Shown one piece after another: positions 9,326 to 43,874 of a DNA stretch of 64,000 nt. Source of the stretch: Rhynchopus sp. YZ270_cl-10 (lineage: Eukaryota); assembly GCA_964035575.1 (NCBI GenBank), contig OZ037838.1, forward strand, positions 1,860,001 through 1,924,000, read 5' to 3'. Numbering within the stretch: position 1 is the first letter of the stretch; every line of letters begins with the position of its first letter. A program made the position numbers and the translations under genes. The notes under the pieces are model-generated. The model was given only the letters and a program-made list of their open reading frames with translations, did not search any database and had not been told where the DNA came from.

Positions 9326-9333
9326 AAAAACCA

Positions 9334-18127: not shown

Positions 18128-19294
18128 ATGATGGATGTGACCTTTGTGCTGGAAGAGTCAGGCGTGACTGCGACAGTGGAGGTGCCGTGCGAGGCGGACG
18201 TTGCAGCGGCAAAGGAGGTTGCGTGCACGGCGCTTGCTGTCTCGCCTGCGTCTGTCGAGATGCGCATCGGCACGCAGGTGCTGGAGGGGACGTGCCGTCT
18301 GCAGGACACTGCGTTTGATGCAGGGGTGCAGGTTGTGCTTGCCCGCCCTCGCTTTGCCAACATCAAGTGTCCTGCTGCGCACAGTGTGCCGCAAGATTTG
18401 TGTAACTTCTCGTTGTCTCCTTGTGGATCGCTCTGTCTCTATTTCCACTTGAAATATTTCAATCCCAGTGGTGGTATCGGCAGTACCGGTGTCGGCTTTG
18501 ACACAGAAACCTTCGAGACTGCCTTCACGTTTGAAATCGAATTCGGTGGGCTTGGTCCAGCTGCCATCTCACGGTGCAAGACACACTGCTACATGGCGTT
18601 CAGGCGTTGTCTTGCCAAGGTTGCGCTTCCGGGTGGGGAGGTGCTCTGCAAAGTCGACGGCCTCTCGGCGTCGGTGTTCGCGTGTGGCGGTGTTGTTGTC
18701 TCCCAAGGCAAAGACGGCGTCTCTGTGTATGACGAAGACCTGACGTTGCTCCGCACTCTCTCGCACGTAGGGTGCAACGAGGGGAACGACGTGGCAGTGT
18801 CGGACTGTGGTGGGTGGGTGATCACCCACTCCAATACGGAGCAGAACGCACGTCTGTGGGATGTGAACACAGGTGAAGCTGTGGCATGTGTGCCTGCGGA
18901 TGGGAGGCAGGTGGCGCTTTCACGGTCTGCCTCTGTCTTTGCTGCGGTGCGCAATGCCAAGGTGCAGCTCTACGACTGGAGTGGTGCGGCTCTTGGCAGC
19001 TTTGAAAAGGAGGAGTCTCGCGTCTTTTCCGTGCAGTTCACTCCGTGTGGGAAGTACGTCGTTGTTGGCTTTGAGAGTGGTGACTTTGATCTGGATTCTG
19101 AAGAGCACACCCTACACCAGTATGATGTGGCGACCATGTCCTGTGTGCATGTGATACCAAATTCCTACCAAGCGTTTGCGATATCGCCGTGTTCACGTGT
19201 GGTTTTGTTTGAGTCAGGAGAAAGTGACGACCTTGTGTCACAGCATCTGTACCCCTACTTGAGTGATGTTTCGGATGAAAACAGAGAAGAGTAG
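18128..19294 (+). CDS. UBL + beta-propeller family protein, copy 1
   Basis: N-terminal ~72-aa ubiquitin-like pattern (MDVTFV...LQDTAFDAGVQVVL) followed by 7 WD40-like blades (SPCG, SRCK, ACGG, SDCGG, SRSA, TPCGK, SPCSR turns; RLWDVNTG); intronless. Confidence 0.88.
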   Translation: MMDVTFVLEESGVTATVEVPCEADVAAAKEVACTALAVSPASVEMRIGTQVLEGTCRLQDTAFDAGVQVVLARPRFANIKCPAAHSVPQDLCNFSLSPCGSLCLYFHLKYFNPSGGIGSTGVGFDTETFETAFTFEIEFGGLGPAAISRCKTHCYMAFRRCLAKVALPGGEVLCKVDGLSASVFACGGVVVSQGKDGVSVYDEDLTLLRTLSHVGCNEGNDVAVSDCGGWVITHSNTEQNARLWDVNTGEAVACVPADGRQVALSRSASVFAAVRNAKVQLYDWSGAALGSFEKEESRVFSVQFTPCGKYVVVGFESGDFDLDSEEHTLHQYDVATMSCVHVIPNSYQAFAISPCSRVVLFESGESDDLVSQHLYPYLSDVSDENREE

Positions 19295-20448
19295 CCCTGA
19301 TGAGCACAACAGCGTGCAGCTCTATGATTGTAGCAGTGCGGCTCTCAGCAGCTTTTAGTAAGCATGGTCATATCAGTGTGTTGCTATCGTGCGTTGCATC
19401 AGTATTTGCGTTGCACCCTCGACCTACTAGCCTATGAGGGAATTCATTTTTAGTAAACACGTTGTATTTGACAAAATGCTCGAGACCCTTGTGAAATGTC
19501 GCGCGTTCTGCGTATCCACCTCCCCGCTTGTTTTCCCCCTCTCTTTTCCCCTTTGTGCTCCACAACATTTTCTGTACTTCAGGCAAAACACATTCAAACC
19601 GTAAATCTGCGTATTTACCGTTATCAAGTCGAGAACAGAAAAGAAAAGAAAAGAAAAGAAGAAAAAACAAGTAATTGCTATCAGAAAAAAAACGGGGTGT
19701 GCTGTGGTTATGGGGGGACCCACACTCTTGAACACTGGCCTGTAGAAATAATCTACACTCTGCTCTTCTGCAGGTATGCGAAAACACTGCCAGAACCACT
19801 GGGACGCCTGCACTTGAAACGTTCAAGAACGGGGGCTGTCATCCTCAGACCCCTCTTCGTCCAGCACCATTTGCTCGATCGATGGTCGGCGTGTTCCAGC
19901 TCGTTGTCGTAGCCTCCCACTCATCGTCGTTGCCGGAGGAGGAGTGCGCAAGGAACACAGACGACTAATTGTGGTCGATCACACCATGCGCATCAGCACC
20001 ACCCAGCAAAGCGCCAGGCTGCTATGTTGGTTTCAAAAACCGCGCGGAGTTTCCCACAGCACACCTCGTTTTTTTTCTTAGCAATTCCTTGTTTTATTGT
20101 TGTTGTTGTTGCAACACACCTTCCTTCAACCCTTGTAGCATCGGTTGTCATTTTTTTCTAGAAAACTTGAAATTACACATTTCAAGAGAACAAATTAAAA
20201 AGGGACCTTATTTGCATTTTTGGGCTCCGCCCGTGCAGTGGTGGGGCCAATCTCGAAAATTGGACAATTTTTTGACCACTTAAATTTTGAGAAATATGAG
20301 CCCGGTTCCTTATACCATACATATTAGGTACGTACGTAATACGCGGCTTTTTAATTAAAATAATAAAATACGTAGTACGTAAAAATAATACTACGTACGT
20401 AGCAAGATTAGCCGCAAAATACGCGCAAAATACGTAGTAAATAAAGTA

Positions 20449-22560
20449 GGGGAAACGACAATGTGGACTCTAAAAATGTGGATTACGACAATGTGGATTA
20501 ATAATCCACATTGTCGCATAATCCACATTGTCGTAATCCACATTGTCGCAAAAAATAATCCACATTGTCGCATAATCCGGATTCTTGATTTTTTGCCTTC
20601 TTGGTACCCAGGTACCCAGGTACCCAGGAACAGGAAAAAAGTCGTGAAAGAGCAACCACAGCTCCACATGACAAACACAAAAGTGTCCAGTCACGTGGGG
20701 CATTCATGCACTGAGGAGATAATGATCCAACAATTTACAAGAAAGATTACTTAACCTACTGCTGGAAATTGCCAGGTCGTAGTAACACACAAAGTGTGCC
20801 TCCGTTCGGGAAGACCGGATATTCTAGAGACCAAAAAGGCCTCAAGAATATCTTCCGGTAGTCAAGGTAGAACCGAGTGAACGGCCCAAGACCCCCGTGG
20901 AGAAGTTAAATGTTGTAATGCTATCAGGTAGAAACTGCGAACACTGTCTTACCCTCCTCAATGCATGGTGGTTGATGTCTTCCACAACAAATTTCCTGTA
21001 CCCAGGTACCCAGGTTCCCAGACCCACGCAGTACCACGTCGCAGTACTACGCAAAATTTACCACCAGACCCTGTCTTCGTGCACCTGAAGTACAACGCCG
21101 CAGACAGGCCAAACATGCGTTGGACTCAGAGGAATGCCCGCTGTGCAGGTATCATGAGAACCAACTCCCAGCAACAAGGGGCGCCTTTTGGCGGGCGTTG
21201 TTGAGGGTGTTTGGGGTGCAAAGTTTTCCACAATTTTGATGCGCGGATACAGAAGTGTTATCTTGTTCTTTCATCTCTAAGAAATGTAAATGTCAATCGC
21301 GTTTAACTACCACTAGGGCTTGTTCAGTGAACCCACGAGGGGTCGAAGGGGGTTGGTTATCCCGTATCTATCAAAGGTTGTGTCGACCAGGCTAAACCAC
21401 TATGTTACGCTGTACGTTGTTAAATCCGAAGAAATAACACTTTAGCAGCCGCAGGAAGTTTGCTAAAAAGAGTGCCTCACGCTACACAAACCACCACCCG
21501 CGATTGACTTAGATGTTATAACAAAGAGAATTCAGAACAAAACAACACCCTGCCCCATACACACTAAATTGTCATACTTCAAGAGCATGCCTGGGCCAAA
21601 ATTACTATGACGAAAAGGCAACAAGACCACCCACAAGGAGTGTGAATTGTGCACTGGTTTTCTGGGGGAACAAACAATATTTTCTTGCGTCTAGTCCTCC
21701 GTAAGTAGAGGACAGACTTTCCGGAAGGTTTCCAAAGTCGAATTTCTTGCACTAGCTATGCTCCCTGGGTTAATGGCAATAGCAGTGACTGCGACAGAGT
21801 GTTCCCACCCCCCTTTCTACCCATATGTTCGCTCGTTCTGCACTCTCGACGTTGCACTCATTGCGATACCTGTTTAAAAGTGAATTTGGGAGTGGTGGGG
21901 AAATTAAAGAAGGTGACTTCTTAAAAAAATAAGTTGGCGGGGTGTAAAATATTGTTCTGGAGACTAGGAAATACGAGTCGACGGCCTTATTTTGTTGAAT
22001 ATTCACCAGAAAGTTAAACATATTTACATACCTTGTCTTGCGCCTTCGCTGCTGTCAAGGTGCCTTCTCTGGGTACCCAGTAGGAGGCTCAAAACTGCTC
22101 AATTCTGGCTGGAATTGCAAAATTGGGCACTTTTAGGATGTGACCAAAAAAATTTTCGAGAGTCTAGTTATTACAGAGGCTCACCTTAGAAGGCAAAAAT
22201 AGTCAATAATCCGGATTACCGACAATAATCCGGATTATGTGACAAGGTGGATTACTGGTGTTTTGGTGGAAAAAACCGCAAAAACGCGTTTTAGACCCCC
22301 AGAGAGGCTCAAAACTGCTCAATTCTGGCTTTAATTGCAAAATTGGGCACTTTTAGGATGCGACCAAAAAAATTTTCGAGAGTCTAGTTATTACAGAGGC
22401 TCACCTTAGAAGGCAAAAAATCAAGAATCCGGATTATGCGACAATGTGGATTATTTTTTGCGACAATGTGGATTACGACAATGTGGATTATGCGACAATG
22501 TGGATTATTAATCCACATTGTCGTAATCCACATTTTTAGAGTCCACATTGTCGTTTCCCC
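20449..22560. mobile_element. Non-autonomous MULE-like element
   Basis: ~150-bp TIRs starting GGGGAAACGACAATGTGG; 9-bp TSD AATAAAGTA (20440-20448, 22561-22569). Confidence 0.88.
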
Positions 22561-22621
22561 AATAAAGTATTTACGTACCAAATACGTAGTAAATAAAGTA
22601 TTTTTATATTAATTATAATAG

Positions 22622-24861
22622 ATATCAGCCAAAATCTGCTTAGCCGTATACTTCGGGGCCTCGTTCACTTAATAAACCACAGATGCAAATTTTTGAGCCT
22701 ACGACCCCGCATTTAACTCATTTCGATCCCCTGATTTCAATCCCAAAAAAATTTCAAAAAAATAAAAAAAAATTATTTTCTGAAATGACGTCGGCAGTTT
22801 TTTCTAAGTAAGAGAAAACCGAATGGAGTGGGAACGCTAGTGAGAGCGCAGCGGAAACGATAGTGGGAACGCAACGAGCTTTTTTCATAGTCAGTCCTAT
22901 TCGTGGTCATTTACCCCCCCCCCTTTGGGTCGGTGAACCGGAAATTTTGGAAATAAGGGGGTAAAATAAGGGGGGGGGGGGTAAATGAGGGGGTAAGGGG
23001 GGGGGGGGGTAAATTACCATGTTATGGGTTAGGTCATGTTTTTGGGTGGGAAGGGGGGACTTTTTCATACACGGTGGGGTAAAATTTTGCACAACACAGT
23101 GTGACGACACATGCTCTCATGACAAATGTGTCATCTGAAAAAAATTCCTCACTTCCTTGCGACATCGCAAGCAGTCATGCATCATGGATCCACATCATCC
23201 ACATCATCTTTCTGCCCGTGCCTGAACCATGACTGGTCAGGGATCACGGTGTTGCCTCAGATTCCGTGAGGTGTCCCAAACGTATCGCCCACGCAGCACA
23301 AACGTACCCACCTGCACCCATCTACCTGCACACGTGATGTAAAACAGGGTGAAAGATTATTTGCACTTTACCCCTTTCCTCATTTCGAGCTTGTCTCCAG
23401 CTTCAAATCAGACGAGTCCTACAGTCTCCGGATGTACGACCCGCTGAACACATCAGCCCCTCCCAGCAAACCATAAAACAAAACAGGTATGCGCTGCACT
23501 AAGTGAAACTATTACCCCATAATTACACGCCAGGTGGTGTTTTGCCACTCGTTCCCTGAACCCCCTCGCTTCGCTCGTGGGTTTAGGTCACTCGTGACAA
23601 AACACCACCTGGCGTGTTGCGGCGATAATTACCCAAAAATTACCTGGTGGCTGGTACTTTACCCCCCCAGGGGGGTAAAGTACCAGCCACAACAGGGTAT
23701 TATAAGGGGGGGGGGGTAAATTACCATGTTATTTTGGCCTGAACCGTTTTTTTCTGAAAAAGGGGGTAAAATAAGGGGGGGGGGTAAATTTAGGGGGGGG
23801 GGTAAATGACCACGAATAGGACTGATGTTTTATTCTTCCCCACAAAATATCACGCGCAGAGAAACACTCGTTTTTCACACAGCGCGTCCGTTTGTTTGTT
23901 TTTCTCAAACGACACCTTTTTTCAAAATTTTTCCCCGGTATCACATATGATACTGATTTCCATGGATACACATGAAAAGGAGTTCCGTGCTATTCACAGA
24001 ACTCGATAGGCGATTGAGCTTATCTAACAACAACCAAAACAAAAGAAAGTACAAAGAAGAGAATAAAAAATGCAGGAAAAATAGACAAAGAGAAAAACAA
24101 AGAGATTTTGACAAAGTGAACAATAAAAACTTTTGCTCTCCGCCGCCTCAGGTGAGAAGTTATTTTCCAAACACCCCGAAAATGAGCGTATATGGATTTC
24201 CGAGCTCCCCGCGTTTCATAGAAAAAAAAATCGACCATTTTAGTGGAGTAGAAGTCAAAAAAAAGTGGCTCCAATGCTTTGTGCATGTAATACAGGGGAT
24301 TTTCAGTGCAGAAAGAGTGGTCGGCTCCACCAAAAGTTGCGTACCGTGGAGTGTGTTTCCAGTTGACAAAAATGGTCGCAATTGAAAGATTTGTCAAAAA
24401 TAAATCCAAAGAAAAAAAAATCGACAACTTTTGACAAAAAAAATCAAATTTAGAGACATCGCTGTGTTGGACCCAAAGAGGAGATTTCCTCACCGTACAA
24501 AGTACACTGTATAGTACCCAGTACATAGTACCCATTCTCCCGCCGCCCACTCGCTCGCCCCAGATGCATATTTTTGACCGTCCGACCCCGGAATTGAACG
24601 TTTTCGCACCCTATCTTTCCAAGAATATTTTTTTTCAGAATGTGCCCGGGCCATAAAATCGATAAAATCCACCTGTCCATGGTCAAGTACATTTGAGAGG
24701 CCGGGGGTGTAATATTTTCACCCGAAAAGGCGCGTATATGAATTTCCGGATCGATCTGAAAAAATCCGGGGTCGCAACATTTTTTTGGCGGATTTTTTAT
24801 CACTTTAAAGTGGCTCCAAAAACAGGCCATTATATACGGCTAAGCAGATTTTGGCTGATAT
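22622..24861. mobile_element. Non-autonomous TIR element (ATATCAGCCAAAATCTGCTTAGCCGTATA TIR)
   Basis: Perfect 29-bp TIRs in TA-rich flanks; contains a nested element. Confidence 0.75.
22892..23824. mobile_element. Nested TIR element (CAGTCCTATTCGTGGTCATTTACCCCC TIR)
   Basis: ~30-bp perfect TIRs with GGGGGTAAA subterminal repeats; no clear TSD. Confidence 0.7.
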
Positions 24862-25038
24862 ATTATTATAAATTACCGGTAGTTTTAAACCGTTACAAGT
24901 GGGTTCCAAGTGGGTTACATACACGACATGTACCACCACCTAATTTTGCCTGAAATTAGGTGAAGTTCAGTGGTTTTTGGTGGTACATGTAACATACATG
25001 TAACCCACTTGTAACGTTACAAGTAGGTTACAAGTGGG

Positions 25039-26166
25039 TTACTTCACCGTCGTGCATGAGCAGGTCGCGTCTGCACTCGAAAACCTACGAGAGCCTGGCT
25101 TCAACAACAGCACCAATATCGGGCAGCTACTGCGATTGGTCAACGAGATATGTATATAAAACTTCTCTCGACCAGTGGTCCTTTCGAAATGGAGGTCCCG
25201 TAAAGCTTTGCTGCTGCGTTCCGAAATTATTTTTGCCAGCATGAAGGTTCTCACCATCTCCGGATGCACATAGCGACCCGCCTGAATCTGAGGGAAATTG
25301 AGGTGATTTTGCCACATCTCCTGAAGGTTTGCCAGAAGTGACTGTGTCGAGGGTCTGTAATTTACCTTCATCGCATTCACCATCTTTTCGAAGCGTGTCC
25401 GTATTGTAATTGACATGAAGCCGACATCGTCTTTTTTTTTTTTTTTAAAGCCCACATCGTCGGTCTCGTTGAAGCCCTGTGAGACTTCTGCAACGTGCCC
25501 ACACGAACCACTTTGAACAAAGTGTTCTTGAACACCTGTTGTTCGGTTCACGAACGTGTCGATCCACTTTCCGGTGGATCCGCCGCTGACCGCAAGGATG
25601 TGGTTACCAAGCACCACCGCACCGTCAAATAGGAGCTGGATGGTGCCACTTCGTTGGAGATCCTCCAGGACCACCTCCATGTCCTCTTGGAAGATTTTGT
25701 CGATGTGCATTTCAACCAGTGCGCCCTTCGAGATGGACGGGTCCCCGTAGAGCTTTGCAGCTGCATTGCGAAAATGCCTTGCTTGCCCGCTCGTTGACCC
25801 CCCATAAAGGGCCGCGCGGGCAAACATCTTGTTTTTTTCGGTTTTGGAAAAAAGGCCTGTCGTCACACGCACCTCCTTTTCTTCTTCATCTTCGTCTTCA
25901 GCTTCATCGTCATTTTTGTCTGCATCGTCCTCGGGGTGTGTCTTCTTCACCTTCGTACCCTTTTTCTCCATCAGCCTTGCGAGCAGCTCTGTGTGCTTTA
26001 TCCCGGTCAGGTGTTGCCTCAGGCTGTCCAGGTCCCAATTGGACCGGGGCCCGTTGCACGCCTCGCAGAAGACCACTTCGTCGGTCTCCTTGAAGCCGCG
26101 ATCCAGGAGGGAGGACCGGTGCGACTTCTTCTTCGTCGACGCCGCACGCTTCCCAGACGCAGACAT
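25039..26166 (-). pseudogene. Truncated or degenerate Zn-finger transposase (hAT-like)
   Basis: CEAC...HLTGIKH finger and IQLLFDG first-acidic-residue strand; the C-terminal part degenerates and runs into a CAC-MITE end; upstream terminus ...CCGGAACACC (~26508) shared with ~5817 and, with a mismatch, ~14487. Confidence 0.55.
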
Positions 26167-27196
26167 ATCTAAAAATCAAATCTGTTCCGTTGATGATTGG
26201 TGGGAAGGACGGGCGGGGGATAACAGCACCATTTTGCCATGTCAAAAAAAAAGGGGGGGGGTGTGTGTGTCATTTTATAACTTGTATGCTTTTTTTGTAT
26301 GTACGTATTTACGTGTGCCGAGAACTGTCCAATTTTGCAAAGTGACCCACTACTGGACGGACGGATTCCAAAAATGCAAATGCCGGTGTTTTTGGACGAT
26401 GCATCTTTCCCGGCCAAAAACCCTACCACAAATTATAAAGTGTACCCCCTCCCCCTTATACCAATGACCTCTCAGGGACCTGTCAACATAGCCCCCCTCC
26501 GGAACACCATTTGAGTAATTAAAACTACGGTCAATATAAGTGGTAACTATTAAAAATACGCGCATTTACGTAGTATTAAATAAAAATACGCGCAACTTAC
26601 GTAGTATTAAATAAAAATACGCGCAACTTACGTAGTATTAATTAAAAATACGCGCATTTTACGTAGTATTAATTAATTATTATTAAATAAATACCCCTTC
26701 ATGTTGCAAATACGTACTACGTATTTTATTATTTTTACTACGTATTTGCCGCGTATTACGTACGTACCTATTATGTATGTTATACGTGGGGCCCATTTTT
26801 GGCCAAAATTTTCCTCAAAATCCGGGTTTGTAATATTGACCCTTTACTCCCCCCCCACATCGATTTCAATACTATACCTTACTTCACCTACGGTTACCCT
26901 TACAGGGGGGGTGAAGGAAGGTAAGTTGAAAAGGAAGCGAAGAACAAACAACCTTAATTTTCCTCTTCCCGTTTTTAGCCTTTTGAGCAACAAGCAAATA
27001 GGAACGAGTCTCTCGAGCATTTTGAGACATTTTGAGGATAACGACCACACCACCCTTCACCTCCCTTTTTCACTTTTGCTTTGTTAAAACCCTCTTCTGT
27101 TGGTGGAAATCACAGACAACTCAGCCATCACAAACGCACAAAACAACCCACACCTCATCTCCTCCCAACAGAGGTGGAACAAGAAGAAGCAAAACA

Positions 27197-28291
27197 ATGG
27201 ATGTGACCTTTGTGCTGGAAGAGTCAGGCGTGACTGCGACAGTGGAGGTGCCGTGCGAGGCGGACGTTGCAGCGGCAAAGGAGGTTGCGTGCACGGCGCT
27301 TGCTGTCTCGCCTGCGTCTGTCGAGATGCGCATCGGCACGCAGGTGCTGGAGGGGACGTGCCGTCTGCAGGACACTGCGTTTGATGCAGGGGTGCAGGTT
27401 GTGCTTGCCCGCCGCTTTGCTGACATCAAGTGTCCTGCTGCGCACAGTATGCACGGACACTTATGTAACTTCTCGTTGTCTCCTTGTGGGGAGCTCTGTA
27501 TCTATTGCTACGTGACAGACGATATCAGTATTGCCTGCTGCGGCTTCGACACAGAAACCTTCGAGACTGCCTTCAAGTTTGAAGTCGAGTTTTGTGCGCG
27601 GACCACGTCGCCTGCCATCTCACGGTGCAAGACACACTGCTATATGCCGGGTCTTGCCAAGGTTGTGCTTCCGGGTGGGGAGGTGCTCCGCAAGGTCGAC
27701 GGTGTTTCATTGTCTGTGTTTGCGTGTGGCGGTGTTGTTGTGTCACAGGAACACAACGGCGTCTCTGTGTATGACGAAGACCTGACGTTGCTCCGCACTC
27801 TCTCGCACGAAGGGTGCAGGGAGGCGGCAGTATCTGGCTGTGGTGGGTGGGTGATCACCTCTTCCTGGGAGAAGAGGAACGCACGTCTGTGGGATGTAAA
27901 CACAGGAGAAGTTGTTGCATGTGTGCCTGCGGATGGGAGTCACGTGGCGCTTTCACGGTGTGCCTCTCTCTTTGCTGTGGATTGCTCTGACGAAGTGCAG
28001 CTCTATGACTGGGATGGTGCGGCTCTTGGCTGTTTAAAAGAGGATCAGGCTAGCGTCTCTGCCGTGCAATTCACTCCATGTGGGAAGTACGTCGTTGTTG
28101 GGTTTGAGACTTGTGAGCACGATGATGGACGGAAATATAGTTTACATCAGTTTGATGTGTCAACCCAGTCCTGTGTGCGGGTGATATTGGACAGCCACAA
28201 TGCGTTTGTGATATCGCCGTGTTCACGTGTGGTTGTGTTTGAGTCATCAAATAGTACCACTCTTGTGTCACAGCATCTGTACCCCTACTGA
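27197..28291 (+). CDS. UBL + beta-propeller family protein, copy 2
   Basis: Same UBL and blade framework as copy 1. Confidence 0.88.
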   Translation: MDVTFVLEESGVTATVEVPCEADVAAAKEVACTALAVSPASVEMRIGTQVLEGTCRLQDTAFDAGVQVVLARRFADIKCPAAHSMHGHLCNFSLSPCGELCIYCYVTDDISIACCGFDTETFETAFKFEVEFCARTTSPAISRCKTHCYMPGLAKVVLPGGEVLRKVDGVSLSVFACGGVVVSQEHNGVSVYDEDLTLLRTLSHEGCREAAVSGCGGWVITSSWEKRNARLWDVNTGEVVACVPADGSHVALSRCASLFAVDCSDEVQLYDWDGAALGCLKEDQASVSAVQFTPCGKYVVVGFETCEHDDGRKYSLHQFDVSTQSCVRVILDSHNAFVISPCSRVVVFESSNSTTLVSQHLYPY

Positions 28292-28590
28292 GCGATGCAG
28301 TCCACCCTGTGTGGGAAGTACCTCCTCGCTGTCGCTGAGTACTGCGGTGTGTTGCTATCGTGCGTTGCATCAGTATTTGCGTTGCACCCTCGACCTACTA
28401 GCCTGTGAGGGAATTCATTTTGAGACATTTTGAGAATAACGACCACACCACCCTTTACCTCTCTTTTTCCCTTGCCTCGGTAATCCCTTTCTTCTTGTGT
28501 TCTACACAACGAAGCCATCACAAGACACAAAACAACACAACCCACACCTCATCTCCTCCCAACAGAGGTGGAACAAGAAGAAGCAAAACA

Positions 28591-29673
28591 ATGGATGTGA
28601 CCTTTGTGCTGGAAGAGTCAGGCGTGACTGCGACAGTGGAGGTGCCGTGCGAGGCGGACGTTGCAGCGGCAAAGGAGGTTGCGTGCACGGCGCTTGCTGT
28701 CTCGCCTGCGTCTGTCGAGATGCGCATCGGCACGCAGGTGCTGGAGGGGACGTGCCGTCTGCAGGACACTGCTTTTGATTCAGGGGTGCAGGTTGTGCTT
28801 GCCTGTCCTCGTTTGGCTGACATCAAGTGTCCTGCTGAGTACAACGTAGAGGCGCCAAATCATTCACGTACGGGAGCCTTGGCGCTGTCGCGTTGCGGAA
28901 CGCTCTGCATATATGTTTGTGATAGGAATGTTGTTGGCTTCGACACAGAAACCTTCGACGCTGTCTTCTCGTTTGAAGTGGACAATGAAGTGCACGGCGG
29001 TCGGCTTGCCATCTCGCAGTGCAAGACACGCTGCTACCTGGCGTGTTGGGGTTACTTTCTCGAGGTTGCGCTTCCGAGCGGGGAGGTGCTCCGCAAAAAG
29101 GAAGGCATCTCGAAGTCTGTGTTCGCGTGTGGCAGTGTTGTTCTCTTGAGTGGCCACAACGTAGTCGTGGTGTATGACGAAGACCTGACGTTTCTCCGCA
29201 ATCTCTCACATAAAGACTGTTATGACATGGCAGTGTCTGACTGTGGTGGGTGGGTGATCACCTCCTCCAGAACAGAGGACAACGTACGTCTGTGGGATGT
29301 GAACACAGGTGTTGCTGTGGCATGTGTGCCTTCGGGGTTGTGGTGTGGAGTGGCAATTTCACGGTGTGCTTCTGTCTTCGTTGTGGAGGAGAGGGGCGGT
29401 GTACAGCTCTATGACTGGAGTGGTGCGGCTCTTCGCAGTGTTCATGTGGGTGGGGATATCGAGGACACGCAGTTCACACCGTGTGGGAAGTACCTTGTGG
29501 TAAGGAAAAACCTGCTGCACCAGTATGATGTGGCGACCATGTCCTGTGTGCATGTGATACCGCAAACCTTAGTTTCGTACTTTGCCATATCGCCGTGTTC
29601 ACGCGTTGTGGTAGTTATGCAACCAAATGGCGTCATTGTGACAAGGCATCTGTACCCACACAACAGCGAGTGA
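28591..29673 (+). CDS. UBL + beta-propeller family protein, copy 3
   Basis: Same UBL and blade framework. Confidence 0.88.
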   Translation: MDVTFVLEESGVTATVEVPCEADVAAAKEVACTALAVSPASVEMRIGTQVLEGTCRLQDTAFDSGVQVVLACPRLADIKCPAEYNVEAPNHSRTGALALSRCGTLCIYVCDRNVVGFDTETFDAVFSFEVDNEVHGGRLAISQCKTRCYLACWGYFLEVALPSGEVLRKKEGISKSVFACGSVVLLSGHNVVVVYDEDLTFLRNLSHKDCYDMAVSDCGGWVITSSRTEDNVRLWDVNTGVAVACVPSGLWCGVAISRCASVFVVEERGGVQLYDWSGAALRSVHVGGDIEDTQFTPCGKYLVVRKNLLHQYDVATMSCVHVIPQTLVSYFAISPCSRVVVVMQPNGVIVTRHLYPHNSE

Positions 29674-29712
29674 TGTGTGACCAGGGGAGGGGAGGGAGGG
29701 TGGTGATGAATA

Positions 29713-31116
29713 CAGTGTGACACAGAATTAATGGCCGATGACGACATTTTGTAAAAATTGTTATATTATTCTAAAAAATAGGCAAAATTTGACTCATTTC
29801 ATTGCATTTTCAACTGGCCGTGTATGAAAAGTGTGTGTGTGGGGAAAATATTAACATGGAAATATCCCTTTTTGGTAAAAAAGGGTGTATGTGTAAAAAA
29901 AAAAAATACAGTGTAGCAGTACAAACGAGTGGGTGCACAAAAATAAATAGAGCATGCATTAGTATTTTGTGTGCATTCCGTTGGAATTGCGAACTGCGTC
30001 TAGGCGTCGTGGCATTGACATGATGTAACGTGCAACGAAGCTATTGTCCATCTTGGACCATTCCTTGTTGATGGCACGTTTAAGTGCTGACACGTCTTTG
30101 GGCTCCCGTTCGTTGACTGCAGTCTGCAGCTTGGCCCACAGGTTCTCAATAGGATTGAGATCAGGGGAGTTGCCTGGCCAGTCAGCTTTAGGGAGGAACG
30201 AGAAAGGTTGGGAGGAGAGGAATGCTTGAGTAACGTTCGCAGTGTGGCAGGGTGCCCCATCCTGCTGAAACGTGTAGCTACTGTCAGGCAGGAGTTCTTT
30301 TATTTCTTTGAGCGCTTTCTGTAAGACGAGCGTACGGCACTTCTCTGCATTGAGAGCACCGTCATAGAAATAGAGCTTCGTCTTACCTCTGGTGGTGATT
30401 CCTCCCCAGACGTGAACCTTCTGCGTAGCCCTGACCTTATCAACGGTTGGGGGCGGCTCATCACCATCTGCAACCCAGACAACATCGTTCTTCTTGCTCA
30501 CCCGAGAAAAAAGCCAAAAGTCTTTTTCATCGGTGAACATCACCTTTGACCAGTCGGTGTTTCGATGCGTTTCAGCAAACTCTATCCGGGCAGTGATGTT
30601 CTTTTCCGAGAGCTTTGGTTTGCTCTTCGTTTGAACGGGCTTCAGCCCCTTCTCCTTCAGGCACCTGCGGACACTCTCCCTCGAAATCTGTAGTCGCGAC
30701 GCTACTTTCCTGCAAGACTGAAACCGCTTGCCCCGCATGTGTCTAACCACCCTATTCTTAACGGTGTCGGTGGTGGCCGATCTCTTGCGTCCCCTCCCTG
30801 GCTTGTCCGAAAAATTCCGCTCTCCAGCGCGGTACTCCTTCACCCACCTACCCAAACTCCTCTTCGCAACGTTCAGCAACTCCGCCACCTCATCATGGCT
30901 CTTACCGCCAACAACGACTAGCGACGCTGCCTGTAGGCGCAACCCTTCCCTCGTGGCCTCAGTGTTCACTTTACCCTTAACCATTATATTTTTGCTTTTA
31001 TTGTGTTCCTGGGCGTAAATATTTTATGTTTTGGGGGTGTTTTGAATATGTCCTTGTCAAAATTTGCCGTTTTTTTATAAAATGTCTTCATCGTCCATTA
31101 ATTCTGTGTCACACTG
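29713..31116 (-). mobile_element. Tc1/mariner-superfamily transposon, apparently complete
   Basis: TIR CAGTGTGACACAGAATTAATGG at both ends, TA TSD, intact transposase inside. Confidence 0.95.
29959..30984 (-). CDS. Tc1-like transposase, DD37E
   Basis: N-terminal HTH, GRGRK linker, FTDEK, VWGGI, FQQDGAPCH, WPGNSPDLNPIENLW; 37 residues between the second D and E. Confidence 0.95.
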   Translation of the reverse strand: MVKGKVNTEATREGLRLQAASLVVVGGKSHDEVAELLNVAKRSLGRWVKEYRAGERNFSDKPGRGRKRSATTDTVKNRVVRHMRGKRFQSCRKVASRLQISRESVRRCLKEKGLKPVQTKSKPKLSEKNITARIEFAETHRNTDWSKVMFTDEKDFWLFSRVSKKNDVVWVADGDEPPPTVDKVRATQKVHVWGGITTRGKTKLYFYDGALNAEKCRTLVLQKALKEIKELLPDSSYTFQQDGAPCHTANVTQAFLSSQPFSFLPKADWPGNSPDLNPIENLWAKLQTAVNEREPKDVSALKRAINKEWSKMDNSFVARYIMSMPRRLDAVRNSNGMHTKY

Positions 31117-31173
31117 TATGACCCAGGGTACCAGCAAATTAACCACATCAAACACAACAGACCCCTGAACAAT

Positions 31174-32295
31174 ATGATGGATGTGACCTTTGTGCTGGAA
31201 GAGTCAGGCGTGACTGCGACAGTGGAGGTGCCGTGCGAGGCGGACGTTGCAGCGGCAAAGGAGGTTGCGTGCACGGCGCTTGCTGTCTCGCCTGCGTCTG
31301 TCGAGATGCGCATCGGCACGCAGGTGCTGGAGGGGACGTGCCGTCTGCAGGACACTGCGTTTGATGCAGGGGTGCAGGTTGTGCTTGCCCGCCGCTTTGC
31401 CAACATCAAGTGTCCTGCTGCGCACAGTGTAGAAGGGATGTTGATCTGCTGGTCACTCTCGCGTTGTGGGACGCTTTGTGTCTTGTATGACGAATGTAAT
31501 AGGAGCATGTATGGTTTGGATACAGAAACCTTTGAGAGCACCTTCTTTGTCGACGACATTGGCGTATGTGCGTACGGTGCACCTGCCATCTCGGCTTGCA
31601 AGAAACGCTGCTACCTGACGTGCAAAGAGAGCATATGCGAGGTTGCGCTTCCAGGTGGGGAGGTGGTCCGCAACGTCAACGGTATCTCAGAGTCTGTGTC
31701 CGCGTGTGGCAGTGTTGTTGTCTCCCACGGCAAAGACTGCGTCTCTGTGTATGACAAAGACCTGACGTTGCTCCGCACTCTCACACACAAAGGGTGTGTG
31801 AGATTCAGGGTGTCTGACTGTGGTGGGTGGGTGATCACCTCCTCAAAAGTGGAGGACAAAGCACGTCTGTGGGATGTGAACACAGGTGAAGCTGTGGCAT
31901 GTGTGTCGACGGGAGGTACGTACGAAGTGGCACTTTCCCGGTCTGCCTCTGTCTTTGCTGTGGGACACTCTCCGCACGTACGGCTCTATGACTGGAGTGG
32001 TGCGTTTCTGCGGAGCGTTTTTACGGACAGAGAGGTTGGGCATATGGAGTTCACACCGTGTGGGAAGTACCTTGTGGTTGGAGTCTACATGAAATTTCCC
32101 GATGATGACCGTTTGTTGCAGTGCGATGATCCACACGAACTCCGCCAGTACGATGTCGCGACCATGTCCTGTGTGCATGTCATTCTGAGTGTTGACAATT
32201 CATTGTTTGCGATATCACCGTGTTCGCGTACGGTTGTGTTTCAGTTTGGCTCAGTATTGAGGACGAGATATCTTTACCCTCACAGCAGTGACTGA
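31174..32295 (+). CDS. UBL + beta-propeller family protein, copy 4
   Basis: Same UBL and blade framework. Confidence 0.88.
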   Translation: MMDVTFVLEESGVTATVEVPCEADVAAAKEVACTALAVSPASVEMRIGTQVLEGTCRLQDTAFDAGVQVVLARRFANIKCPAAHSVEGMLICWSLSRCGTLCVLYDECNRSMYGLDTETFESTFFVDDIGVCAYGAPAISACKKRCYLTCKESICEVALPGGEVVRNVNGISESVSACGSVVVSHGKDCVSVYDKDLTLLRTLTHKGCVRFRVSDCGGWVITSSKVEDKARLWDVNTGEAVACVSTGGTYEVALSRSASVFAVGHSPHVRLYDWSGAFLRSVFTDREVGHMEFTPCGKYLVVGVYMKFPDDDRLLQCDDPHELRQYDVATMSCVHVILSVDNSLFAISPCSRTVVFQFGSVLRTRYLYPHSSD

Positions 32296-32779
32296 GGCGT
32301 TCTCGTACGCGCGAGGTTTAGCCTCTATCCACTGCCAGCTCCGCTCACTCTCTTCCTCAACCCTGTGAACCACCTCCGTGACATGCATAAAGCATCGCGG
32401 ATGCGAGGATGCGCATATTTTTCTTTGACTGGATACCCATATGGGCTGGCACCATTTCCGCCATTTTTTCTCTTCAAATCAGTGCTTCTAATCTAAAGTG
32501 GTAGTCGGCTACCCAGTTACACAGGGTTATCTCCCTTCCGTGGTTGTCCCACGGGTTTCCCGTGAACCGCTGGACCACTATTCTTCCTTTAATTAAACGT
32601 TAGCTTTCTCCTCTCCCCGTGTGTGAACTTATTATTTGGTGGATTGGGGACGCAAATGCTATTTGTAATACAACATGAACAACAACACTGAACGATTTAT
32701 TCTTATCTTTTTTGACCCCCGCCCCCCTGAGTCCTCCCATCCCCCAACCCCCCCCACCCTTGCAGCGTACACAGTGTCG

Positions 32780-33859
32780 ATGGGGTGTGGCAACTCTCGA
32801 GGTGGGGTTGCAGAATGCCCCCCGCAGCTTGAGGAGAAAGCGGAGAAGAAAGAGAATAGCGACAGACCAAAGGGCCCCTACGAGACGATAGCTATAGACA
32901 CACCTTCGTACGACGATGGGCGTGGGCTGAGCGAGGGGGAGATCACAGTAGAGCCTAGCCCGACCATGGTTCGAGTTCGTACAATGAAAAACCAGCTCCT
33001 GTACTCCCTTACCGAGGCGTACAATAGCAGGCGGTACCAGGACGAGCTGCTCCCACCCCCGTCACCAAGCGGCATGTCGGACAAGCAGCTCACACCCACG
33101 CTGTCGTCGCTCGCAGACGCAGTCTGCAGCACTAAGCTGCAGCGGCGTGTGGAAACGTGGGCGGATCTCTGCATCTATCCAGAAGAAGACAACGGGCATG
33201 AAGACATGGTAGGCGACAGCCCGATATCAGACTCAGAGACGTTCCGTGTCTTCCCGGATGATGCGGTATGCTTAGTGTTGTTATTTGTCAAACAATACGA
33301 TAAATTTTGTGCGGGTATAAATATGGGTAAAATACAAATGGTGATGTTCGTGTTCATGTGTTCATGTGTTCATGTGTTCATGTGTTCATGTGTTCATGTG
33401 TTCATGTGTTCATGTGTTCATGTGTTCATGTGTTCATGTGTTCATGTGTTCATGTGTTCATGTGTTCATGTGTTCATGTGTTCATGTGTTCATGTGTTCA
33501 TGTGTTCATGTGTTCATGTGTTCATGTGTTCATGTGTTCATGTGTTCATGTGTTCATGTGTTCATGTGTTCATGTGTCCTCTCCCTCACACCCAATAACC
33601 CCCACTACAGGAACTGCCGACCGCAAAGGGAGATTTGGTGATCGAAGGAGCGGAGCTGCTGAACCTGCAGGGCTCGTTCTCGTTGCGGCGAGTGCAATTC
33701 TACCTGGAGCGAGGCCGCCAGAGCATTGTCGGCACAGAGCCCATAAAATCACGCCACGTATCGATGTGCACACTGGAGAGCACACAGAACACACAGAACA
33801 AAAGCTCGGGGGAGAGCGTAGATAATAATGACAACATTAATGTTGGTGAACTGAAGTGA
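32780..33859 (+). CDS. Hypothetical protein with MGCxxS N-terminus (putative myristoylation/palmitoylation), 2 exons
   Basis: Exons 32780-33265 and 33611-33859; a phase-0 GTATGC...CTACAG intron removes the microsatellite and keeps frame. Confidence 0.65.
33351..33577. repeat. (TGTTCATG)n octamer microsatellite, intronic
   Basis: ~28 perfect units. Confidence 0.97.
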
Positions 33860-34415
33860 ACGTTTGCTGAACCTCGCCAAAAAATAAGTGGCATTGGGGA
33901 ATGAAACAACTACTATTTTTTTTTCACTCTATTTTTTCCCGGCCAAAATCTGGTTTTCTGGTTTTTTTTCCTCACAGGGTTCTCGGCAGGAATCGCTATT
34001 TTTCTTGGAGTCTGCCAAAAAAAGGGTCAACAAAAAATTTTCACCGGTTCATCATCAGTTTTTTTCTTCTTTTCTGAATTTGTTCTTTTTAAATGTGTGA
34101 TGTTGAAAACAAAAAAAACAAGTGTAGCGAAGCCGCCTCCCGGGTGCCTGCATAATGGGGGAGGGGTGGGTGGTACGTTCAGGTATACGATTACGTTAAT
34201 TTGTGGTGCTCAGCAATATGCGCACATCCCACCTTCAAAAAAAAGGGTTGTGCGGGCTTCTGTTGTTGGGTTATGTGCTTCGGATATTGTAGTTGAGCTG
34301 CACATACATCATTCCATTTTACTGATGACCCATCTTCTCAATCCCCCCGCCCATCTATTTACAAAAAAGTGTTCGAGAAAAAAAAAATCTGGTAAAATTT
34401 CCTGGGGGGGGGGGG

Positions 34416-37833: not shown

Positions 37834-37919
37834 AGGTGATCCAGCGCACACTTTTGCACACGTTTTCACACCGTGAAAATGTGTGAAAATGTGTGAAAAG
37901 GCGTGAGACTGGATCACCT
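37834..37919. mobile_element. Tiny MITE-like palindrome
   Basis: AGGTGATCCAG / CTGGATCACCT with internal GTGTGAAAA repeats. Confidence 0.4.
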
Positions 37920-39768: not shown

Positions 39769-40899
39769 ATGGATGTGACCTTTGTGCTGGAAGAGTCAGG
39801 CGTGACTGCGACAGTGGAGGTGCCGTGCGAGGCGGACGTTGCAGCGGCAAAGGAGGTTGCGTGCACGGCGCTTGCTGTCTCGCCTGCGTCTGTCGAGATG
39901 CGCATCGGCACGCAGGTGCTGGAGGGGACGTGCCGTCTGCAGGACACTGCGTTTGATGCAGGGGTGCAGGTTGTGCTTGCCCGCCCTCGCTTGGCCGATA
40001 TCAAGTGTCCTGCTGAGTACAGTGTAGAGGGGACAACTGGTGGGCAGGGGGTGTATATACATCGCTTTTTGCTGTCTCCTTGTGGAGCACTCTGTCTCTT
40101 TACACAGGAGGATGGCTATGTCACCGGCCTCGATACAGAAACCTTCAGCCATGCCTTCAGGTTCAAAGTAGACTTTGAGGTGTGCGATGAGCCTGCCATC
40201 TCACGGTGCCAGACACGCTGCTACCTGGCGAGCAGGCAAGGTATGCACGAAGTTGCGCTTCCTGGTGGGGAGGTGCTCCGCAAAGTTGACGGCCCCTCGT
40301 TCCAAGTGTTTGCGTGTGGTGGTGTTGTTGTCTCGAAGGGCAAAGACTGCGTCTCTGTGTATGACGAAAACCTGACGTTGCTCCGCACTCTCTCGCACGG
40401 AGGGCACCATTGGCGCGTGTACGTGGCAGTGTCGGACTGTGGTGGGTGGGTGATGGTATGCTGCGGCGGAGAGAAGAACGCGCGTCTGTGGGATGTGAAC
40501 ACAGGTGAATCTGTGGCATGTGTGCCTGCGGTTGGGGGTGCTGTGGCGCTTTCACGATCTGCCTCTGTCTTTGCTGTGGTGGGCTCTCACAAAGTGCAGC
40601 TCTACGACTGGAGTGGTGCAGCTCTTGGCAGCTTTGCAAAGGAGCAGAATAGAGTATATAGCATGCGCTTCACTCCGTGTGGGAAGTACGTCGTTGTTAG
40701 CTTTGTGAGTGGTGAACTATGTTACGGAGTGTACACTCTACACCAGTATGATGTGGCGACCATGTCCTGTGTGCGTGTGATACAGGACACCAAAGGTGTA
40801 TTTGCGATATCGCCGTGTTCACGTGTGGTTGTGTTCAAGGCAGCAGGAGGTGCCGCAAGAAGAAACGTCCTTGTCACAAGGAATTTATACCCCTACTGA
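39769..40899 (+). CDS. UBL + beta-propeller family protein, copy 5
   Basis: Same UBL and blade framework. Confidence 0.88.
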   Translation: MDVTFVLEESGVTATVEVPCEADVAAAKEVACTALAVSPASVEMRIGTQVLEGTCRLQDTAFDAGVQVVLARPRLADIKCPAEYSVEGTTGGQGVYIHRFLLSPCGALCLFTQEDGYVTGLDTETFSHAFRFKVDFEVCDEPAISRCQTRCYLASRQGMHEVALPGGEVLRKVDGPSFQVFACGGVVVSKGKDCVSVYDENLTLLRTLSHGGHHWRVYVAVSDCGGWVMVCCGGEKNARLWDVNTGESVACVPAVGGAVALSRSASVFAVVGSHKVQLYDWSGAALGSFAKEQNRVYSMRFTPCGKYVVVSFVSGELCYGVYTLHQYDVATMSCVRVIQDTKGVFAISPCSRVVVFKAAGGAARRNVLVTRNLYPY

Positions 40900-41207
40900 G
40901 CGAGCAGTGCACCCTGTGTGGGAAGTACCTCCTCGCTGTCGCTGAGTACTGCGGTGTGTTGCTATCGTGCGTTGCATCAGTATTTGCGTTGCACTCTCGA
41001 CCTACTAGCCTGTGAGGGAATTCATTTTGAGACATTTTGAGGATAACGACCACACCACCCTTTACCTCTCCTTTTCACTTTTGCTTTGTTAAAACCCTCT
41101 TCTGTTTGTGGAAACTACAGACAACGAAATCACCGCAAACACACAAAACAAAGCAACCCACACCTCATCTCCTCCCAACAGAGGTGGAACAAGAAGAAGA
41201 CAAAATA

Positions 41208-42380
41208 ATGGATGTGACCTTTGTGCTGGAAGAGTCAGGCGTGACTACGACAGTGGAGGTGCCGTGCGAGGCGGACGTTGCAGCGGCAAAGGAGGTTGCG
41301 TGCACGGCGCTTGCTGTCTCGCCTGCGTCTGTCGAGATGCGCATCGGCACGCAGGTGCTGGAGGGGACGTGCCGTCTGCAGGACACTGCGTTTGATGCAG
41401 GGGTGCAGGTTGTGCTTGCCCGCCGCTTTGCCGACATCAAGTGTCCTGCTCAGTACAGTGTGCATAATTTGTGTAACTTCTCGTTGTCTCCTTGTGGATC
41501 GCTCTGTCTCTATTTCCACTTGAAATATTTCAATCCCAGTGGTGGTATCGGTAGTACCGGTGTCGGCTTTAACACAGAAACCTTCGAGACTGCCTTCAAG
41601 TTTGAAACCAAATGTCGTGGGCTAAGTCCGCCTGCCATCTCGCAGTGCAAGACGCGCTGCTACCTGCCATGTGGGGATCACTTTTGCGAGGTGGCGCTTC
41701 CTGGTGGGGAGGTGCTCCGCAAGGTGGACGGTGTCTCATTTTCTGTGTTCGCGTGTGGTGGTGTTGTTGTTTCCCAAGGAAAAGGCGATGTCTCTGTGCA
41801 TGACGAAGACCTGACGTTGCTCCGCACTCTCTCACACAAAGGGACCGAGGGGTGTGAAAACAGCATGGAACCGTGCGCTGACATTGCAGTGTCTGACTGT
41901 GGTGGGTGGGTGATCACCTCCTCCCACAGTGAGAACAACGCACGTCTGTGGGATGTGAACACAGGTGAAGCTGTGGCATGTGTGCCTGCGGATGGGAGGC
42001 GGGTGGCGCTTTCACGATGTGCCTCTGTCTTTGCTGCGGAGTGCTCTGAAAAAGTGCAGCTCTATGACTGGAGTGGTGCGGCTCTTGGCAGCTTCGATAA
42101 AGGGCAGTTTCGCATCATTGACATGCGCTTCACTCCGTGTGGGAAGTACGTCGTTGTTGGGTTTTTGAGTGGTGAAGTATTTTGTGAAGAGTACACTCTG
42201 CACCAGTATGATGTGGCGACCATGTCCTGTGTGCATGTGATACCGAAGGCCCACCAACGGTTTGCGATATCGCCGTGTTCACGTGTGGTTTTGTTTGAGT
42301 CAGGAGAAAGTGACGACCTTGTGTCACAGCATCTGTACCCCTACTTGAGTGATGTTTCGGATGAAAACAGGGAAGAGTAG
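41208..42380 (+). CDS. UBL + beta-propeller family protein, copy 6
   Basis: Same framework; shares its first blade and C-terminus with copy 1. Confidence 0.88.
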   Translation: MDVTFVLEESGVTTTVEVPCEADVAAAKEVACTALAVSPASVEMRIGTQVLEGTCRLQDTAFDAGVQVVLARRFADIKCPAQYSVHNLCNFSLSPCGSLCLYFHLKYFNPSGGIGSTGVGFNTETFETAFKFETKCRGLSPPAISQCKTRCYLPCGDHFCEVALPGGEVLRKVDGVSFSVFACGGVVVSQGKGDVSVHDEDLTLLRTLSHKGTEGCENSMEPCADIAVSDCGGWVITSSHSENNARLWDVNTGEAVACVPADGRRVALSRCASVFAAECSEKVQLYDWSGAALGSFDKGQFRIIDMRFTPCGKYVVVGFLSGEVFCEEYTLHQYDVATMSCVHVIPKAHQRFAISPCSRVVLFESGESDDLVSQHLYPYLSDVSDENREE

Positions 42381-42761
42381 CCCTCATGAGCACAATAGCG
42401 TGCAGCTCTATGCTTGTAGCAGTGCGGCTCTTTGCAGCTTTGATGAGGCATGGTCATGTCAGGGTGTGCAGTCCACCCTGTGTGGGAAGTACCTCCTCGC
42501 TGTCGCTGAGTACTGCGGTGTGTTGCTATCGTGCGTTGCATCAGTATTTGCGTTGCATCCTCGACCTACTAGCCTGTGAGGGAATTCATTTTGAGACATT
42601 TTGAGGATAACGACCACACCACCATTCACCTCTCTTTTCCCCTTGCCTCAGTAATCCCTTTCTTCTTGTGTTCTACACAACGAAGCCATCACAAGACACA
42701 AAACAAAACAACCCACACCTCATCTCCTCCCAACAGAGGTGGAACAGAAGAAGACAAAACA

Positions 42762-43874
42762 ATGGATGTGACCTTTGTGCTGGAAGAGTCAGGCGTGACT
42801 GCGACAGTGGAGGTGCCGTGCGAGGCGGACGTTGCAGCGGCAAAGGAGGTTGCGTGCACGGCGCTTGCTGTCTCGCCTGCGTCTGTCGAGATGCGCATCG
42901 GCACGCAGGTGCTGGAGGGGACGTGCCGTCTGCAGGACACTGCTTTTGATGCAGGGGTGCAGGTTGTGCTTGCCCGCCCTCGCTTTGCCGACATCAAGTG
43001 TCCTGCTGAGTACAGTGTAGAGGGGACAACACCGCGAGAGAGGTGTGTGACTCAGATAGCGCTTTCTCCTTGTGGAGCACTCTGCCTCATCTCACAGGAA
43101 GGCTATGTCGCCGGCTTCGATACCGAAACCTTCACCACTGTCTTCAGGTTCAAAGTAGACTTTATGGTGCAGCACGGTCGTCCTACCATCTCACGGTGCA
43201 AGACACGCTGCTACCTGGCGAACGAGGATAGCGCATACGAGGTTGCGCTGCCTGGTGGGGAGGTGCTCCGCAAAGTCGATGGACCACCAGTGTTCGCGTG
43301 TGGTGGTGTTGTTGTCTCATGTCGCGACGACGGCGTCTCTGTGTATGACGAAGACCTGACGTTGCTCCGCACTCTCCCGCACAAAAGGTGCAGAGTGGCA
43401 ATGTCGCACTGTGGTGGGTGGGCGATCTCCTCCTCTGGAATAGATGACAACGTACGTCTGTGGGATGTGAACACAGGTGAAGCTGTTGCGTGCGGATGCG
43501 TGCGTGCGGATGGGAGCGTAGCGCTTTCACGATCTGCCTCTGTCTTTGCTGTGGTGCGCCACTTCAAAATGTACCTCTACGACTGGAGTGGTGCGGCTCT
43601 TGGCAGCTACGAAGAAAACCCTATGATTGACATGCAGTTCACTCCGTGTGGGAAATATATCGTACTTGAAACACAGGATAATGCATGCAGACATACCCTG
43701 CACCAGTACAATGTGTCGACCATGTCCTGTGTGCGTGTGTTCTCCAATGTCTCTGGCTTTGCATTTGCGCTGTCACCATGTTCACGTGTGGTAGTGGTCT
43801 TGCCGCGACACTCACAATATTATACTGGTGACACGCGAGACACTATTGAGACGAGACATCTGTACCCCTACTGA
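42762..43874 (+). CDS. UBL + beta-propeller family protein, copy 7
   Basis: Same framework. Confidence 0.88.
   Translation: MDVTFVLEESGVTATVEVPCEADVAAAKEVACTALAVSPASVEMRIGTQVLEGTCRLQDTAFDAGVQVVLARPRFADIKCPAEYSVEGTTPRERCVTQIALSPCGALCLISQEGYVAGFDTETFTTVFRFKVDFMVQHGRPTISRCKTRCYLANEDSAYEVALPGGEVLRKVDGPPVFACGGVVVSCRDDGVSVYDEDLTLLRTLPHKRCRVAMSHCGGWAISSSGIDDNVRLWDVNTGEAVACGCVRADGSVALSRSASVFAVVRHFKMYLYDWSGAALGSYEENPMIDMQFTPCGKYIVLETQDNACRHTLHQYNVSTMSCVRVFSNVSGFAFALSPCSRVVVVLPRHSQYYTGDTRDTIETRHLYPY

Follow-up and report, generated by a model that had tools for sequence, protein, structure and literature searches.

We analyzed a 64,000-nucleotide window of the Rhynchopus sp. YZ270_cl-10 genome (assembly GCA_964035575.1, contig OZ037838.1, positions 1,860,001 to 1,924,000), which harbors an array of seven genes, g1 to g7, each encoding an N-terminal ubiquitin-like domain (UBL) followed by a WD40-type β-propeller. 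Positions given below are those of the window. The genes are uninterrupted open reading frames (ORFs) on the + strand that specify proteins of 360–390 residues counted from a common Met (Table 1), consistent with the seven intact, intronless paralogs described in an initial annotation made from the letters alone. In-frame upstream extensions, such as the 448-residue ORF of g1, are unconserved and were rejected as true starts. The seven proteins share 66–83% identity with g1 and 172 of the 419 alignment columns are invariant; the framework motifs and variable segments quoted in the initial annotation were all recovered in this alignment.

The genes are arranged in three runs, with g1 alone, g2-g3-g4 and g5-g6-g7, and a head-to-tail spacing of 1.4–1.55 kb within runs. 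The array is interrupted by gaps of 8 kb and 7 kb that contain repeats and by a Tc1/mariner transposon in the short g3–g4 spacer. This element, which has 48-nt inverted repeats and TA on both flanks, lies outside the UBL-propeller system. One of two leader motifs precedes each gene. The type-A motif is rich in pyrimidines and has CAG at its end, and the CAG of both motifs likely provides a trans-splice acceptor. A tblastn search across the window revealed no eighth copy and no fragment of a UBL-propeller gene, and Rfam gave no match.

Table 1 Positions of the UBL-propeller genes and associated features in the window
Feature	Position	Strand	Description
g1 UBL-propeller gene	18128..19294	+	387 aa from conserved Met at 18131; type-B leader
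g1 UBL-coding codons 1–71	18131..18343	+	213 bp opening all seven genes, 0–2 differences per pair
g2 UBL-propeller gene	27197..28291	+	364 aa; type-A leader
g3 UBL-propeller gene	28591..29673	+	360 aa; type-A leader
Tc1/mariner transposon, between g3 and g4	29712..31117	-	DDE transposase ORF 29959–30984, intact, 341 aa
g4 UBL-propeller gene	31174..32295	+	372 aa from 31177; type-B leader
g5 UBL-propeller gene	39769..40899	+	376 aa; type-B leader
g6 UBL-propeller gene	41208..42380	+	390 aa; type-A leader; mosaic with g1
g7 UBL-propeller gene	42762..43874	+	370 aa; type-A leader
Type-A leader motif	27151..27171, also 28545, 41161, 42716	+	4 exact matches versus 0 expected
Type-B leader motif	18101..18121, also 31144, 39737	+	contains CAG; 3 exact matches versus 0 expected
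78-bp element downstream of genes	19376..19453	+	96–97% to 28347–28424, 40954–41031, 42518–42595 (four genes)

Such an array could in principle be an assembly artefact in which a few genes are present as several error-prone or uncollapsed copies. Indeed, ENA contigs account for nearly all matches to the family, each cluster holding a single member, and some contigs are possibly alternative haplotypes. However, the reading frames are intact and the differences follow codon and fold structure. Moreover, the 39.5–47.5 kb stretch of the window is covered by four publicly available DNA runs belonging to two studies, and because contig pieces from these runs, of at most 218 bp, match the variable segments exactly, the copies are not assembly noise. 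The runs behave as DNA in that their contigs cross introns of a neighboring gene, and they also contain many further loop variants; the assembly may itself derive from one of the four. Read depth over the genes is far above that of the adjoining single-copy stretch, a value that is summed over contigs and so does not represent copy number. An artefactual origin is thus largely refuted and we assign it almost no probability.

The family extends far beyond the window. Its size was estimated from protein searches, and all DNA-level analyses used the seven window copies. Of 7,997 candidates scored with a profile of the seven proteins, 436 matched at E ≤ 1e-3, and a profile of the N-terminal domain matched 416 proteins at E ≤ 0.01. 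Among the best 120 of the 436 matches, 94 map to a 2,712,987-bp contig, the size given for the window’s own proteins, and the remaining 26 on seven long ENA contigs; these contigs appear to belong to the same assembly as the window, and some could be haplotypes. From 401 fetched proteins we retained 185 full-length members with a UBL at least 90% identical to that of g1. An exhaustive search of 50%-identity representatives further identified older subfamilies that share the UBL-propeller architecture at identities of about 21–50% (the ten members looked up were ENA singletons on contigs of 0.15–1.7 Mb), beyond which the matches were generic long WD40 proteins. A word-limited search with a diverged-subfamily query recovered three members of that subfamily, all other hits being generic WD40 proteins. 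Scans that require short exact peptide matches found no relatives among viral contigs, metagenome contigs or prokaryote genomes, the last searched with one diverged query. We found no publication on this family in the open-licence literature. The main text of the Diplonema papillatum paper (PMC10161547) contains neither “WD40” nor “ubiquitin”, and its supplements mention WD40 six times, ubiquitin-like twice and propeller once, the inspected rows, among them two of the six WD40 mentions, being ordinary genes. The UBL-propeller family is lineage-restricted and comprises roughly 400 genes, a scale that the initial annotation had not foreseen. Among individual proteins, P0003 carries roughly one blade in duplicate, P0271 is a single ORF that runs across two genes, and the diverged P0157 and P0249 have a propeller and no recognizable UBL.

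AlphaFold2 models of the propeller had predicted local distance difference test (pLDDT) values of about 80–90 and a strand count that fits seven blades, with strand 2A, which was not called by DSSP, assigned by eye and the closing strand 7D inferred. In the model, seven four-stranded blades superpose on WD40 structures, in line with the seven-bladed WD40-type β-propeller proposed in the initial annotation. Foldseek matched it to ODA16, G-beta and WDR5 with E values of about 1e-14 to 1e-15, and the ESM Atlas returned generic WD40 clusters only, all under 0.85. Residues 1–77 fell below pLDDT 50 in the first model, and a single UBL sequence matched nothing in the PDB. The signal for the N-terminus was gained by adding 12 diverged N-termini (13 in total). 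The resulting profile matched ubiquitin-like PDB chains with an E value of 2.7e-6 and ubiquitin with 4e-4, and a model built with the diverged members reached pLDDT 88 and superimposed on ubiquitin with a Z score of 13.0 and a root mean square deviation of 1.5 over 74 residues. Pfam ubiquitin matched 5 of the 13 N-termini; the N-terminus from the window itself has no such match. Fold and sequence signal both identify a ubiquitin-type β-grasp domain, which bears out the N-terminal UBL of the initial annotation. Its structural neighbors include Dsk2 (Z 12.5), Ddi2 (12.0), Rad23 (11.3) and a midnolin entry (10.7), and because many UBL types tie within about 1–2 Z units, the fold cannot name the partner. 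The UBL and the propeller fully account for the 360–390 residues, with no NACHT/STAND or N-terminal effector domain.

By WD40 convention, the ligand-binding top face of a propeller is built from its D-A and B-C loops. We assigned loops from the strand order of the model, not from three-dimensional coordinates, and compared the 185 full-length members. The mean entropy was 1.44–3.45 bits in all 14 D-A and B-C loops (seven of each) and 0.21–0.88 bits in all 13 A-B and C-D loops (seven A-B and six C-D; Mann–Whitney p = 1.1e-5). Thus, 14 of 14 top loops and 0 of 13 bottom loops are hypervariable, and the variable segments lie where the initial annotation had mapped them. Loop length follows the same division, its standard deviation averaging 1.4–1.9 for the D-A and B-C loops versus 0.04–0.27 for the A-B and C-D loops. 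There are 111–183 distinct sequences per loop among the 185 members. Members are on average 97% identical in the UBL and 63% identical in the propeller, and in the 25 closest pairs the top loops differ 1.8–5.7 times as much as the framework. A separate feature of the propeller is a near-invariant Cys in six of the seven A-B turns (g1 residues 98, 149, 185, 226, 306 and 354; 167–185 of 185 members), the seventh being mostly Ser. These Cys residues are predicted to ring the conserved face, where they may have a part in metal binding, lipidation or redox chemistry, and members average 19 Cys.

Selection was quantified with our own GY94-type code on a fixed tree of the seven DNA copies using 266 gap-free codons. 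The ratio of nonsynonymous to synonymous substitution rates (ω) was 1.43 in the top loops (p = 0.011 versus 1; bootstrap confidence interval 1.06–1.91, 185 replicates), 0.38 in the bottom loops and 0.43 in the framework (p = 3e-11), which is under purifying selection. Comparison of models M2a and M1a gave a likelihood-ratio test (LRT) statistic of 133, and 28 of the 32 high-posterior sites fall inside the top-loop windows, which comprise 87 of the 266 codons. Three re-analyses, which used a different alignment or masked gaps, gave a top-loop ω of 1.40–1.50 (p 0.011–0.096). Several observations weigh against a selected repertoire. The estimates derive from one fixed tree despite recombination, from only seven DNA sequences and from uncertain loop alignments. 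Silent divergence climbs from about 0 in the UBL to 0.85 in the bottom loops and 2.05 in the top loops, and with silent-rate classes the LRT is only 8.0 (p = 0.018); in the three re-analyses the corrected site LRT is 3.8–10.5 (p = 0.005, 0.10 and 0.15). Masking codons near gaps leaves top-loop ω at 1.40–1.50 with p = 0.035–0.096. Finally, 29 of the 214 proteins with a core-type UBL have no regular full propeller. Diversifying selection on the top loops is likely but, with the corrected site tests being marginal, not proven. The dN/dS above 1 expected in the initial annotation therefore stood as an estimate and weakened upon silent-rate correction. None of three outcomes that it had named as fatal, namely evenly spread variation, a loop dN/dS below 1 and an N-terminus other than a β-grasp, was observed.

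These data also bear on neutral array dynamics, whereby tandem amplification and gene conversion homogenize the UBL as the longest stretch without interruption, tolerant surface loops escape conversion and drift, and no repertoire is selected. The gradient of silent divergence, the marginal site tests, the irregular or truncated copies and a star-like family tree, in which support of at least 0.95 is reached at only 38 of 183 nodes, all favor such a process. However, the bottom loops are also at the surface, yet are length-invariant and have the low ω noted above, while top-loop ω is 1.40–1.50 across all four analyses with a bootstrap interval above 1. In addition, 185 of the 214 copies are full-length at a mean propeller identity of 63%, and much older subfamilies (21–41% identity) retain the architecture. 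We consider neutral dynamics improbable and a selected binder repertoire likely.

The UBL evolves in a different manner from the propeller. Over codons 1–71 of the seven genes the proportions of silent (pS) and nonsynonymous (pN) differences are 0.008 and 0.004, compared to 0.35 and 0.25 in the propeller. The constancy of the UBL thus includes silent sites, a second finding beyond the initial annotation. Because protein-level constraint cannot hold silent sites, purifying selection alone is insufficient, and the identity at these sites suggests either that gene conversion has recurred or that a single UBL swept recently through the family. UBL distance shows no relation to framework distance (rho 0.03), and the same UBL is found behind two unrelated leaders. 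Collectively, these sequence patterns point to gene conversion that homogenizes the UBL between copies. GC-biased conversion is unsupported, as the GC content at third codon positions is 0.70 in the UBL, near the 0.61–0.68 of neighboring genes, and it is the propeller that is low at about 0.56.

Mosaics in the propeller agree with such exchange between copies. In g1 and g6, alignment codons 96–130, which span a hypervariable loop, are identical across 51 polymorphic sites (p = 0.0004, not corrected for the 21 pairs tested), and the two genes also have a near-identical tail and a divergent middle. Trees of propeller halves have 26 splits in common versus 33–38 for random halves. Neighboring genes are mostly not nearest relatives, and recent local tandem duplication was rejected, as g2 and g3, which lie side by side, each come 180th of 185 in relatedness to the other.

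What might the constant UBL do? As anticipated in the initial annotation it lacks a terminal GG: GG occurs within residues 66–85 in 1 of 185 members, unlike a conjugatable modifier. Hydropathy analysis revealed no signal peptide and no clear membrane span (median best window 1.37, highest 1.97), and the proteins are therefore probably cytosolic or nuclear. The L8/I44/V70 hydrophobic patch of ubiquitin is the surface used by proteasome receptors. In a profile alignment these residues correspond to E9 (184/185 members), R45 (184/185) and A71 (180/185), and by direct count the g1 UBL contains 11 acidic and 3 basic residues. Because the patch is missing, classical proteasome-receptor binding is unlikely, and the suggestion that the UBL docks in the manner of Rad23/Dsk2 was not upheld. 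DCAF/DWD receptors of CUL4 are marked by a WDxR-type motif; a loose pattern of this type is present in 12 of 185 members, VN follows the main WD, and the members examined contained no F-box, BTB or DWD signature. Both the absent patch and the absent adaptor signatures count against the reading favored below.

An alternative is that the binder repertoire is real but that the UBL is a self-assembly or signaling module, or a pulling handle for an AAA-ATPase, and that the targets may be RNA, kin-recognition molecules or products of the cell’s own transposons. The known UBL-WD40 proteins Rsa4 and Ytm1 set a precedent, as their UBL binds the MIDAS domain of Rea1 and not the proteasome (excerpt of PMC6920918). 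The loop and selection data also fit this alternative, and the lack of a proteasome-type patch, the richness of the window in transposons and the uniformity of the UBLs, which would suit co-assembly of members, are all in its favor. However, NLE (PF08154) has no match in the 13 N-termini (E up to 1), the 7 window proteins or 14 diverged members. Residue 65, the presumed counterpart of the MIDAS-binding Glu (Ytm1 E80), is Gly in 183 of 185 members. In addition, the known intracellular families with this constant/variable shape are mostly ubiquitin-ligase adaptors, among them expanded MATH-BTB genes. We regard a non-degradative UBL as possible though rather doubtful.

The reading we favor is a library of intracellular binders in which the constant UBL would dock all members on one shared machine, for which we judge the chances to be about even. 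The machine would most likely be of the ubiquitin-proteasome/p97 kind. Gene conversion between copies would keep the UBL uniform and the divergent loops would largely escape it, so that each propeller top face could bind a different, fast-changing and probably foreign target, such as symbiont effectors, viruses or transposon products. The acidic UBL, lacking the classical patch, would contact its partner by another surface and commit the catch to extraction or degradation; that it is a handle of this type for foreign targets is likewise evenly poised. Diplonemids have been repeatedly invaded by Rickettsiaceae and Holosporaceae equipped with secretion systems (excerpt of bioRxiv 10.1101/719211). 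These bacteria would be a plausible driver of the diversification. More speculatively, and held only tentatively, the family may constitute a germline, antibody-like intracellular recognition library of about 400 genes in a free-living protist, with a conversion-enforced UBL, 14 diversifying loops and a non-classical UBL surface that passes foreign proteins directly to a machine for degradation or extraction without a cullin adaptor. If true, this would add a new class to the immune receptors of protists and provide a plug-and-play scaffold for degraders that already exists in nature. Recognition of intracellular invaders by single-celled eukaryotes is still poorly understood. As a single 71-residue domain is uniform across the family, identification of one partner would serve hundreds of genes. 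A scaffold that tolerates 14 variable loops at once, with perfectly one-sided variation, is also of interest for binder design, and the genes illustrate cleanly how concerted evolution confined to one domain can accompany probable diversifying selection within the same gene.

The identifiable non-transposon genes of the window are all on the + strand, with repeats and transposons filling the gaps. A MORN-repeat gene, a Vps23/TSG101-like UEV gene directly after the array and a gene encoding GAF and adenylate/guanylate cyclase domains lie within 44215–47119 and 51901–54375 (+); no evidence ties these neighbors to the array. By eye, the Vps23-like gene has apparent GT-AG introns. Diplonema papillatum has unidirectional gene clusters, canonical introns and trans-splicing, and the gene layout of the window matches this description (excerpt of PMC10161547), as would be expected of a diplonemid-like euglenozoan. 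Further downstream, a 993-residue ORF (58972–61953, +) combines a PIP5K domain with an F-box domain, an unusual pairing. At the other end of the window, a 736-residue ORF (31–2241, +) has no Pfam match, and its first 180 residues appear to resemble the restriction-like endonuclease end of non-LTR retrotransposons. Between g1 and g2 are nested inverted-repeat elements (20449–22560, 22891–23825 and 22622–24861, whose arms measure 153, 34 and 29 bp and are 100% identical in every case) and a 375-residue ORF (25039–26166, -) without a clear Pfam match that by eye resembles a transposase fragment. A 1.2-kb piece (20619–21821) is repeated in inverted orientation at 48219–49418 (97.5%), and satellites with 5- and 7-bp units, together with an 8-bp repeat, give rise to long spurious ORFs at 7623–9326 and 33350–33577.

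Several known systems share individual features with this family. Clustered protocadherins resemble it in the regional gene conversion that homogenizes part of tandem paralogs (excerpt of PMC1852091); these are unrelated cell-surface proteins and the evolutionary mechanism alone is in common. The Podospora HNWD proteins HET-E and HET-D have diversifying sites on the WD40 interaction surface and undergo concerted evolution (excerpt of bioRxiv 10.1101/2025.01.13.632504), and the predicted binding surface of the UBL-propeller proteins is hypervariable in the same manner. However, HNWD repeats are homogenized inside a gene, whereas here a non-repeat domain is homogenized between genes, and there is no NACHT/STAND or death effector domain. 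Similarity to STAND-WD40 proteins is mostly in blades 3–5 and may be generic; two of four long non-family matches that were scanned are nSTAND1-WD40 proteins. The Rad23/Dsk2/Ddi shuttles and midnolin likewise join an N-terminal, non-conjugatable UBL to a C-terminal capture module. By contrast, the present proteins have no L8/I44/V70 patch and no UBA domain, and the capture module is a diversified propeller.

Rsa4/NLE1 and Ytm1/WDR12, which are encoded by single-copy genes, are conserved housekeeping proteins, whereas the family described here has no NLE match, a hypervariable top face and no Glu at the presumed MIDAS-ligand position. An NLE-WD40 cluster is a weak ESM Atlas match (0.82, rank 18). 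What is shared is the domain order, an N-terminal UBL and then a WD40 propeller (excerpt of PMC6920918).

The closest parallel in evolutionary terms is with F-box adaptors. Unstable F-box genes of Caenorhabditis have a conserved docking end and a positively selected substrate end and were proposed to recognize foreign proteins (excerpt of PMC8665587). Nematode and plant F-box adaptors share with the present family clustered paralogs in the hundreds, an N-terminal docking module, a C-terminal binding module and birth-death evolution (excerpt of PMC8665587). A conserved docking end and a probably positively selected binding end within a large, unstable family were also found here, the signal of selection being weaker under silent-rate models. 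Unlike in F-box/BTB adaptors, the constant module is a ubiquitin fold, neither an F-box nor a BTB domain, and is uniform at silent sites. The family lies outside the F-box/BTB, Rsa4/Ytm1, Rad23/Dsk2, DCAF and HNWD families, and its evolutionary signature is like that of the F-box/BTB expansions. Nematode and plant F-box genes pair a constant adaptor with variable binders, and the present family would extend this strategy to a UBL handle, probably in a euglenozoan.

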